DNA of 64,000 nt from an uncultured Chloroflexia bacterium (GTDB taxonomy: Bacteria; Chloroflexota; Chloroflexia; QHBQ01; JAICKM01): assembly GCA_963784695.1 (NCBI GenBank), contig CAWARZ010000006.1, positions 545,282 to 609,281 of the forward strand, read 5' to 3'. Position numbers and translations under genes: made by a program. The notes beneath the pieces were generated by a model. That model saw nothing but the letters and a program-made list of their open reading frames with translations. It ran no database searches and was not told the origin of the DNA. Of this stretch, positions 31,948-32,189 are shown piece after piece (position 1 is the first letter of the stretch; each line of letters begins with the position of its first letter).

Positions 31948-32189
31948 ATGGTCACGCACATCCCCGACGACGACTGGCCGTCCTTCTGAGCGCACCAGCA
32001 AGCGCCGTCGCGGCTTCCCGTCCGAGACGCACGTCAAGCGCGGCCCGCGCGTCGTGCACGGCGACCAGGCCCTGCAGGAAAAGCTCGGGCGCAACGATCT
32101 CTGCCCCTGCGACTCCGGGAAGCGGTTTCAAGCGCTGCTGCCGCGGCCGCGGCCGCTATGACGGCGTGGTGCGCGCCTACTACTTTTAG
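31948..32189 (+). CDS. Small SEC-C (Zn-binding) motif protein encoded across three frames (two +1 changes at ~31987 and ~32129)
   Basis: RBS GGAGG then [16 protein letters not shown] / [19 protein letters not shown]...[16 protein letters not shown] / KRCC...YYF. Confidence 0.7.

Follow-up and report, generated by a model that had tools for sequence, protein, structure and literature searches.

Does a bacterial gene whose reading frame breaks twice within ~79 codons encode a protein, and if so, how would the ribosome reach its end? The question arises at position 31,948 of the window (the whole 64,000-nucleotide stretch of uncultured Chloroflexia DNA analysed here), where a gene for a protein with a SEC-C zinc-finger motif needs two +1 frame changes. 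A sequence-only reading had attributed both to programmed recoding. We compared the locus with its relatives in the same order and with loci from many bacterial phyla. The comparison indicates that the window gene genuinely belongs to a widespread family of basic proteins of ~80 aa that carry a predicted SEC-C type C-x-C-x8-C-C metal knuckle, and that the full-length product probably depends on a series of programmed +1 ribosomal frameshifts in which tRNA-Phe slips at UUU_Y.

The window gene spans three reading frames

As the sequence-only reading had noticed, a good ribosome binding site and an ATG open the gene, and +1 frame changes at two Phe codons are needed to read on (Table 1). From ATG 31948, the full reading (~79 codons) passes through three frames and meets zero internal stops within them, and both joins are reproduced in conceptual translation when TTCT or TTTC is read as one step. 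A third candidate shift site (S4), beyond the two noted earlier, overlaps the stop codon of the last segment.

Table 1. Features of the SEC-C gene and its broken neighbours, in window coordinates
Feature	Position	Strand	Description
Shine-Dalgarno GGAGG	31936..31940	+	7 nt before ATG 31948; read directly from the sequence
Segment 1 (leader)	31948..31986	+	13 codons, frame 1; from translation
Site S1	31984..31989	+	TTC_T; TTC 31984-86, 0-frame stop TGA 31987-89; +1 step needed
Segment 2	31988..32128	+	47 codons, +1 frame, from GAG 31988 to TTT 32126-28; basic N-terminal part and first half of the SEC-C motif (CPCDSGKRF); from translation
Putative metal ligands	32102-04, 32108-10, 32136-38, 32139-41	+	Cys codons of C-x-C-x8-C-[C/H]
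Site S2	32126..32129	+	TTT_C (C 32129); 0-frame next codon CAA; +1 gives AAG CGC TGC TGC
0-frame tail without the S2 step	32130..32161	+	10 residues, stop TGA 32159-61; not conserved as protein
Segment 3	32130..32186	+	19 codons from AAG 32130 (KRCC...GRYDG...YYF); second Cys pair at 32136-41
Site S3	32157-59	+	in frame in the window, TAT (Tyr)
Site S4	32184..32193	+	TTT_T 32184-87 over stop TAG; +1 gives AGG GAC (R D), no stop after
Segment 3 stop	32187-89	+	TAG
Class I SAM methyltransferase (Methyltransf_25/11)	32215-33020	+	one base fewer than three relatives
GHMP kinase	29794-30787	-	split in two frames: N-terminal 69 aa at 30581-30787, rest at 29794-30612

The second step completes the SEC-C motif with KRCC, as had been claimed. 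Segment 2 alone scores 24 bits against the Pfam SEC-C profile (PF02810; cut-off 20.4 bits) and covers profile positions 1-13 of 19, and after the S2 step the score rises to 31.8 bits and the coverage to positions 1-17. Therefore, the second Cys pair of the putative metal knuckle depends on S2, and only a +1 step there can reach it. A profile search of the PDB matched YchJ-C (9l6b_C, E 8.5e-9) and the SecA zinc-domain peptides 1sx0, 1tm6 and 1ozb over GRNDxCPCGSGKxFKxCC, and a protein-atlas search returned SEC-C clusters and nothing else. The conserved basic N-terminal half was covered by no Pfam or NCBIfam family. An AlphaFold model of a homologue's in-frame core (86 aligned sequences, no metal) had a mean pLDDT of 61.3, which is too low for a fold search.

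Databases name the members of this family 'SEC-C metal-binding domain-containing protein' or 'YecA (UPF0149)', and gene callers shorten them (many are 55-aa forms ending at S3) or add junk tails. Annotated homologues with ends of the RFQxLL type, cited in the sequence-only reading as a hint that the second shift is conserved, do exist: they are P0036, P0106 and the 0-frame reads of L002-L006.

Several other features of the locus were considered. Selenocysteine insertion or stop read-through at UGA 31987 was rejected: the same-frame continuation is not the conserved protein, and conservation lies in the +1 frame. The window genome encodes a tRNA-SeC(TCA), so that some of its genes use UGA for selenocysteine, and the S1 UGA is not such a case. 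An Rfam scan of positions 31600-32500 gave no match at E up to 1. A terminator-like hairpin (GGCGTGGTGCGCGCC then TACTACTTTT) lies inside the coding sequence at 32163-32177 (+), just 5′ of S4; it is probably a chance occurrence (0.4 expected per shuffle). Finally, a +1 step at S4 (TTT_T 32184-87) to R-D leads into a frame that stays open to the in-frame methyltransferase ATG at 32215, a possible fusion (32184-32517, +) that may well be a coincidence.

Breaks recur at four phenylalanine positions across phyla

We scanned one genome per species and confirmed at least 585 loci among 599 pattern matches; a profile search of 1.84 billion cluster representatives gave 747 matches at E up to 1e-10. 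The best 80 of the at least 585 loci were kept and parsed together with the window and five relatives (n = 86), and the counts below refer to this best-scoring sample. Parsing employed our own frameshift-aware dynamic programme, which aligned the conceptual product, followed by rules. The parser erred at L011 and L063 (S2/S3; really S3 breaks), at L072 (in frame at S1) and perhaps at L069 at S1, and the counts are good to within a few loci. One parsed locus, L065, belongs to an unpublished genome.

The best 80 loci come from at least ten phyla, including Planctomycetota, Acidobacteriota, Verrucomicrobiota, Gemmatimonadota and Chloroflexota, and further include Clostridia, Deinococcales, Abditibacteriota, Methylomirabilota and others. 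One of them lies on a complete chromosome (Bradyrhizobium sp. BWA-3-5, NZ_CP136626.1, L039), with TTT_C at both S1 and S2. We considered a phage or plasmid hallmark and rejected it, as one locus lies in viral_contigs and two in plasmid records.

Across the 86 loci, breaks occur at four Phe positions, S1 to S4 (Table 2). Three shifts per gene are needed in 63 loci and two in 19; a further 2 loci need one shift each, 1 locus needs four and 1 needs none. Every break carries TTT followed by T or C, with the window's S1 as the sole exception, and the in-frame versions of the sites carry TTC, TTT plus a purine, or Tyr. At a Phe codon where no shift is needed (G-F-PSE), 49 loci have TTC_C and 4 have TTT_C; the latter four count against programmed shifting.

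Table 2. State of the four sites in 86 parsed loci (window, five relatives and the best 80 of at least 585 loci)
Site	Context	State	Broken forms	In-frame forms
S1	leader-F, then E..SKRRRG	broken 82, in frame 3, unresolved 1	TTT_T 33, TTT_C 42, T-run needing +2 or -1 6, TTC_T 1 (window)	
S2	RF, then KxCC	broken 51, in frame 33, mis-parsed 2	TTT_C 45, TTT_T 6	TTC 32, TTT_A 1
S3	G[R/C]F, then DG	broken 32, in frame 53, gap 1	TTT_T 31, TTT_C 1	Tyr, Phe (TTC or TTT_G), His, Leu
S4	YF, then R[E/D]-stop	broken 68, in frame 6, unaligned end 7, other 5 (including window)	TTT_T AG 41, TTT_C (AG/CG) 27	TTC AGR GAN stop 6

The second shift is thus conserved well beyond the window, with UUU_C at S2 in relatives and in just over half of the parsed loci. 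At S4, the 27 loci with TTT_C have a 0-frame that stays open for at least 10 codons, while their +1 frame reads R-E/D-stop, exactly as the in-frame alleles encode it; consequently, S4 matters. Most of the 86 loci have the same strong Shine-Dalgarno sequence and an ATG or GTG ahead of the leader, and the relatives' leaders have about 11-19 codons and end in [S/C/G/F]-F. The Planctomycete copies L016, L025, L058, L066 and L070 have seven T then C at S1, where the frame needs +2 or -1; U_UUU_UUC is a classic -1 slippery heptamer.

Within the same order, a DNA search found the gene in 8 of 41 genomes, including the window's own, and 7 of these lie among the 26 genomes of one genus in another family; a protein-profile search raised the counts to 9 of 41 and 8 of 26. 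Both searches found the gene absent from all eight same-genus or same-family genomes (71-91% complete). Segment 2 of the window is 68-72% identical to the relatives' segment. At ~73% DNA identity, four of the five relatives have GGC/TGC TTT TGA G at the first site and CGC TTT CAA/CAT G at the second, and G023 has the identical break pattern at both sites. The relative G030 (L007) has TTT_C GA at S1 and is in frame at S2 (TTC AAG). The sequence-only reading had named a continuous ORF in relatives as the sign of an artefact; instead, the relatives keep breaks at the same codons. Their assemblies mostly have many contigs, and two of the genomes (G011 and G019) are unpublished, are counted in the tallies and carry no conclusion. 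In G030, a 30-contig assembly, an extra G (CGA GGG T TAT) upstream of S2 demands another +1 step, which could reflect two compensating changes or homopolymer errors.

Each segment is selected in its own frame and belongs to one protein

We calculated the variability of each codon position in the frame in which each segment is read. In all three segments, the entropy at codon position 3 is 1.2-1.5 bits, compared to 0.4-0.85 bits at positions 1 and 2, and invariant Arg, Leu and Ser residues are written with up to 6 codons across the loci. This pattern shows purifying selection on each segment in its own frame. Diverged relatives share the codon at which the frame breaks, and selection acts on the protein both before and after it.

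In-frame fusions or alleles exist at S1, S2, S3 and S4, and therefore the segments form one protein. In particular, the databases hold leader-core fusions in frame (P0019, P0050 and P0144, reading ...FFE[P/N/T]MSKRRRG). At the level of sequence, the comparison establishes how the frames are arranged, that this arrangement is conserved across phyla, that breaks carry TTT_Y and in-frame sites TTC in a strict dichotomy, and that selection acts in each frame.

A probable serial +1 shift by tRNA-Phe at UUU_Y

In the mechanism that we favour, a peptidyl-tRNA-Phe (anticodon GAA) that sits in the P site on UUU would slip one base forward onto UUC or UUU, while the 0-frame A-site codon is a stop or slowly read (UGA, CGA, CAA, UAG or CAG). 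In the window, translation would start at ATG 31948, shift at S1 (UUC_U GA), shift again at S2 (UUU_C AA), and either end at UAG 32187 or shift once more at S4 (UUU_U AG). Failure at S1 would release a 13-aa peptide, and failure at S2 would yield a protein without the second Cys pair. We infer that the shifts are the work of the ribosome and not of RNA polymerase or a special tRNA. With several sites in series, output would depend steeply on the slipperiness of tRNA-Phe.

The case for recoding is a comparative one. Among the 86 loci, the 0-frame A-site codons are UGA or CGA at S1, CAA at S2, UGA at S3 and UAG, CAG or CCG at S4; the window has UGA at S1, CAA at S2 and UAG at S4, two of them stops and the other a slow codon. 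Around the SEC-C gene, Gln is seldom written as CAA (24 versus 159 CAG in neighbouring genes). TTT is also rare there, with 13 TTT versus 183 TTC in 21 coding segments (7346 codons). TTT_Y occurs just 6 times across these 7346 neighbouring codons, and it occurs twice in the 79-codon window gene, both times at family shift positions; because of this rarity, the two TTT_Y are not a product of drift. The window genome has a single tRNA-Phe(GAA), and no four-base anticodon was found among its 56 tRNAs.

The sequence-only reading had called TTT-C a perfect +1 re-pairing site. That description holds at S2 (UUU_C), and S4 (UUU_U) likewise permits re-pairing of the P-site tRNA, but it fails at the window's first site, where the +1 codon of UUC_U is UCU, whose middle base mismatches tRNA-Phe, so that the tRNA re-pairs poorly. 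Apart from the window, S1 is UUU_Y in 75 of the parsed loci. We looked for a universal stimulator resembling a Shine-Dalgarno sequence upstream of the sites in the 86 loci and found none. Such runs do occur upstream of S2 in 13 of 51 broken versus 2 of 33 in-frame sites, and upstream of S3 in 11 of 32 broken versus 6 of 53 in-frame sites.

Schwartz and Curran (1997) are reported to have found more slippage at UUU_Y when the A37 modification is lost. UUU_Ynn is reported to be prone to +1 shifts in bacteria (PMC5009743), and FseA is reported to shift at UUUC with 4-13% efficiency (PMC4755241). At these published UUUC rates, hardly any protein would come out of three shifts in series. An ATG stands two codons ahead of SKRRRG in 42% of loci, and there re-initiation could replace the S1 shift as the way into the core; the window has no such ATG.

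Alternative explanations of the frame breaks

The main rival for the window copy itself is that it is a decaying relic of a frameshift-dependent family, in which S1 has changed from UUU to UUC, the stop of the S4 tail has been lost and the full protein is no longer expressed. We consider this unlikely. TTC_T at S1 is unique to the window among the 86 loci, and its +1 tail after S4 has no stop codon. The gene also appears dispensable, being patchily distributed and not found in the eight same-genus or same-family genomes, and in the window it stands in a sugar-biosynthesis context, without RNA-repair or tRNA neighbours. Against decay, the window copy retains all family-invariant residues, with K40Q as the sole change at a 95% conserved position. 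Its Shine-Dalgarno sequence, ATG and S2 are intact, the used frames are free of internal stops, and ending at UAG costs the product just two residues.

Alternatively, one or both of the window's breaks could be indels of a long-read metagenome assembly, with S1 truly being TTC GAG. The caution that the window contains many apparent 1-nt errors had been raised beforehand, and it is fair to the extent that at least two broken neighbours lie within 1.4 kb of the SEC-C gene. The methyltransferase, 95 nt downstream, is one base short compared to G011, G021 and G022 near 32283 (GAG GAC CAC -TC CAC ACG), so that its N-terminus and body fall in different frames; this break is either an assembly deletion or a pseudogene. 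The GHMP kinase lies 1.4 kb upstream. The assembly comprises 8 contigs at 89.6% completeness, and the in-frame S1 forms use TTC (L026 and L050), so that TTC plus T could be an inserted T. The caution does not explain S2, however: TTT_C is shared there with the relatives and 45 of the 86 loci, hence it is no error. Moreover, a Pfam search of the 27 kb from 19 to 46 kb found 2 broken genes among 27 coding-like segments, with the other 25 unsplit, a rate at which a hit on one given base is very unlikely, and some 95% of the family has a break at S1, which makes a break the expected state. We therefore consider an assembly indel quite improbable. Because an indel exactly at S1 is improbable at the observed local error rate, we take the window's S1 to be a true site whose sequence has degenerated from the UUU_Y GA of the family.

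The frame might also be restored at the level of nucleic acids, by transcriptional slippage, by phase variation on T runs or by a quadruplet-reading tRNA. The Planctomycete S1 sites are runs of 6-7 T whose length varies as slipped-strand changes would produce (T6+G in frame, T6C, T7 and T7C), and in-frame alleles exist. Most sites, including all those of the window, are nevertheless just TTT_Y, which is too short for polymerase slippage, and C often follows TTT. The single ordinary tRNA-Phe, the lack of a four-base anticodon tRNA in the window genome and the persistence of the pattern in many phyla further make this account very improbable.

It is hardly credible that the segments are not one protein at all, with the leader acting as a regulatory upstream ORF and only the truncated products mattering: a terminator-like hairpin 3′ of the gene in 34 of 83 loci (some with RNA-repair genes behind it) does resemble a leader or attenuator, and an ATG stands before SKRRRG in 42% of loci, but the 10- and 9-codon pieces between S2, S3 and S4 have no start codons and are conserved, second Cys pair included, and in-frame fusions occur at every site.

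Comparison with known systems

The few known bacterial cases of programmed +1 frameshifting, prfB and FseA among them, have one site each, and we are aware of no published bacterial gene family in which ~80 codons contain two to four required shifts. In prfB, which encodes release factor 2, an autoregulatory +1 shift occurs at CUU_UGA_C with a Shine-Dalgarno-like element 3 nt upstream. The SEC-C family resembles prfB in that the P-site tRNA would slip +1 before UGA, and the label of an RF2-style architecture, given to the window in the sequence-only reading, suits the relatives: their S1 and S3 are UUU_UGA (UUU UGA G at S1), and several carry GGGAGG (before CGC TTT) 3 nt upstream of S2. It does not suit the window itself, which has UUC_U at S1 with nothing resembling a Shine-Dalgarno sequence before it, and GGGAAG CGG before the TTT of S2; an element of the prfB type ~3 nt upstream was not found. 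Unlike prfB, the family has no release-factor link, has serial sites with many sense A-site codons (CGA, CAA and CAG), and carries Shine-Dalgarno-like elements in a minority of loci.

To our knowledge, the only other setting with several +1 shifts in one gene is Euplotes (AAA_UAA type). There, the shifts differ in occurring in a ciliate, genome-wide, at a different slip codon and in connection with stop-codon reassignment. The predicted protein shares its motif, by profile match, with the C-terminal zinc domain of SecA, YchJ and YecA (PF02810). In contrast to these proteins, SEC-C here lies in a free-standing protein of ~80 aa with a basic N-terminal half, and the motif is split by a frameshift site.

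A reported parallel in slip chemistry is FseA (msi172-msi171) of the Mesorhizobium symbiosis ICE, where the same slip of tRNA-Phe from UUU to an overlapping UUC is described and where single-ORF and frameshift-requiring variants are likewise mixed (PMC4755241). FseA has one site in a DUF2283 protein and is reported to have a conserved G-rich upstream region, whereas the SEC-C family has two to four sites in ~80 codons and lacks an upstream signal common to all loci. In prfB, too, UUU_U is reported for a minority of the genes (PMC5009743). The PA-X shift of influenza A virus is described at UCC_UUU_CGU (PMC3498833), and many S1 sites read TCC TTT CGA, with the same E- and P-site codons and a rarely used CGN in the A site. 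PA-X differs in being viral and eukaryotic, in having a single site, and in giving an alternative C-terminus rather than the sole functional product.

Our search of the literature, which covered main texts rather than supplements, found no description of this SEC-C family or of a serial +1 arrangement in a bacterial gene. The main text of the GeneTack paper (PMC3711429) contains no SEC-C, UUU or zinc term, and its supplements could list the family; in PMC13178939, frameshifting is raised for secA itself, and as speculation. The slip motif is already known, and the proposed conserved serial gating of protein synthesis looks to be undescribed.

Genomic neighbourhood and possible role

The sequence-only reading had coupled the gene to the downstream methyltransferase. 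This coupling breaks down outside the window: G021 and G022 carry the two genes on separate contigs, and the best 80 of the at least 585 loci have other neighbours. Among these 80, the direct same-strand downstream gene is of an RNA-repair type in 15 (RNA_ligase 4, Hen1_L 4, AAA_33 kinase 5, RlaP 1 and Ro60/TROVE 1). A SEC-C gene directly upstream of RNA-repair genes was seen at L093-L096, L016, L025, L029, L037, L041, L045, L053 and L058, and further at L063-L065, L067, L077, L078 and L087. A strong terminator hairpin often lies between the SEC-C gene and the RNA-repair genes (RNA ligase, Pnkp-like kinase, Hen1, RlaP, Thg1-like or Ro60).

We extended four loci, chosen for their RNA-repair neighbours, and saw whole cassettes. 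The first comprises a NIF phosphatase, the SEC-C gene, an RNA ligase, a kinase and Hen1; the second, the SEC-C gene, a kinase and a Thg1-like gene; the third, the SEC-C gene, RlaP, RlaP and HEAT; and the fourth, the SEC-C gene, Hen1, RlaP, IS200, RlaP and HEAT. A terminator-like hairpin plus T-run within 110 nt of the last Phe codon was counted in 34 of 83 loci, compared to 6 in control stretches.

Of 85 loci, 9 have tRNA genes no more than 1.5 kb away, in several cases as arrays of four to seven. The SEC-C gene stands in or next to same-strand tRNA arrays at L038, L026, L053, L070, L024 and L050, and also at L043, L069 and L072; up to seven tRNA genes occur within 1.5 kb, and Arg, His, Cys and Thr species recur. 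In the window genome, RlaP was not found, RNA-ligase matches are on a different contig, and 14 kb separate the SEC-C gene from the closest tRNA gene.

The neighbours in other genomes point to a possible role of the protein in tRNA or RNA repair. A tentative possibility, which we consider rather improbable, is that the serial UUU_Y sites form an ultrasensitive translational sensor that then aids or switches on tRNA and RNA repair operons and tRNA arrays. The output of such a sensor would vary roughly as the cube of tRNA-Phe slippage, and might report the state of the decoding machinery, for instance damage to tRNA or ribosomes, missing tRNA modifications or starvation of the A site. Its effector could be either the zinc-knuckle protein or the ribosome that reaches the end of the ORF just before the terminator hairpin, and its targets in other phyla would be the Rnl-Pnkp-Hen1, RlaP, Thg1-like and Ro60 operons and the adjacent tRNA arrays.

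For annotation, serial frameshifting would concern hundreds of truncated or mis-extended 'SEC-C domain' fragments that gene callers now report. If the shifts are confirmed, the family would offer a natural test bed for the slipperiness of UUU_Y, with many in-frame and shifted alleles at four positions. Because the gene recurs in front of RNA-repair operons and within tRNA arrays, experiments can ask directly whether keeping the frame is tied to RNA damage.
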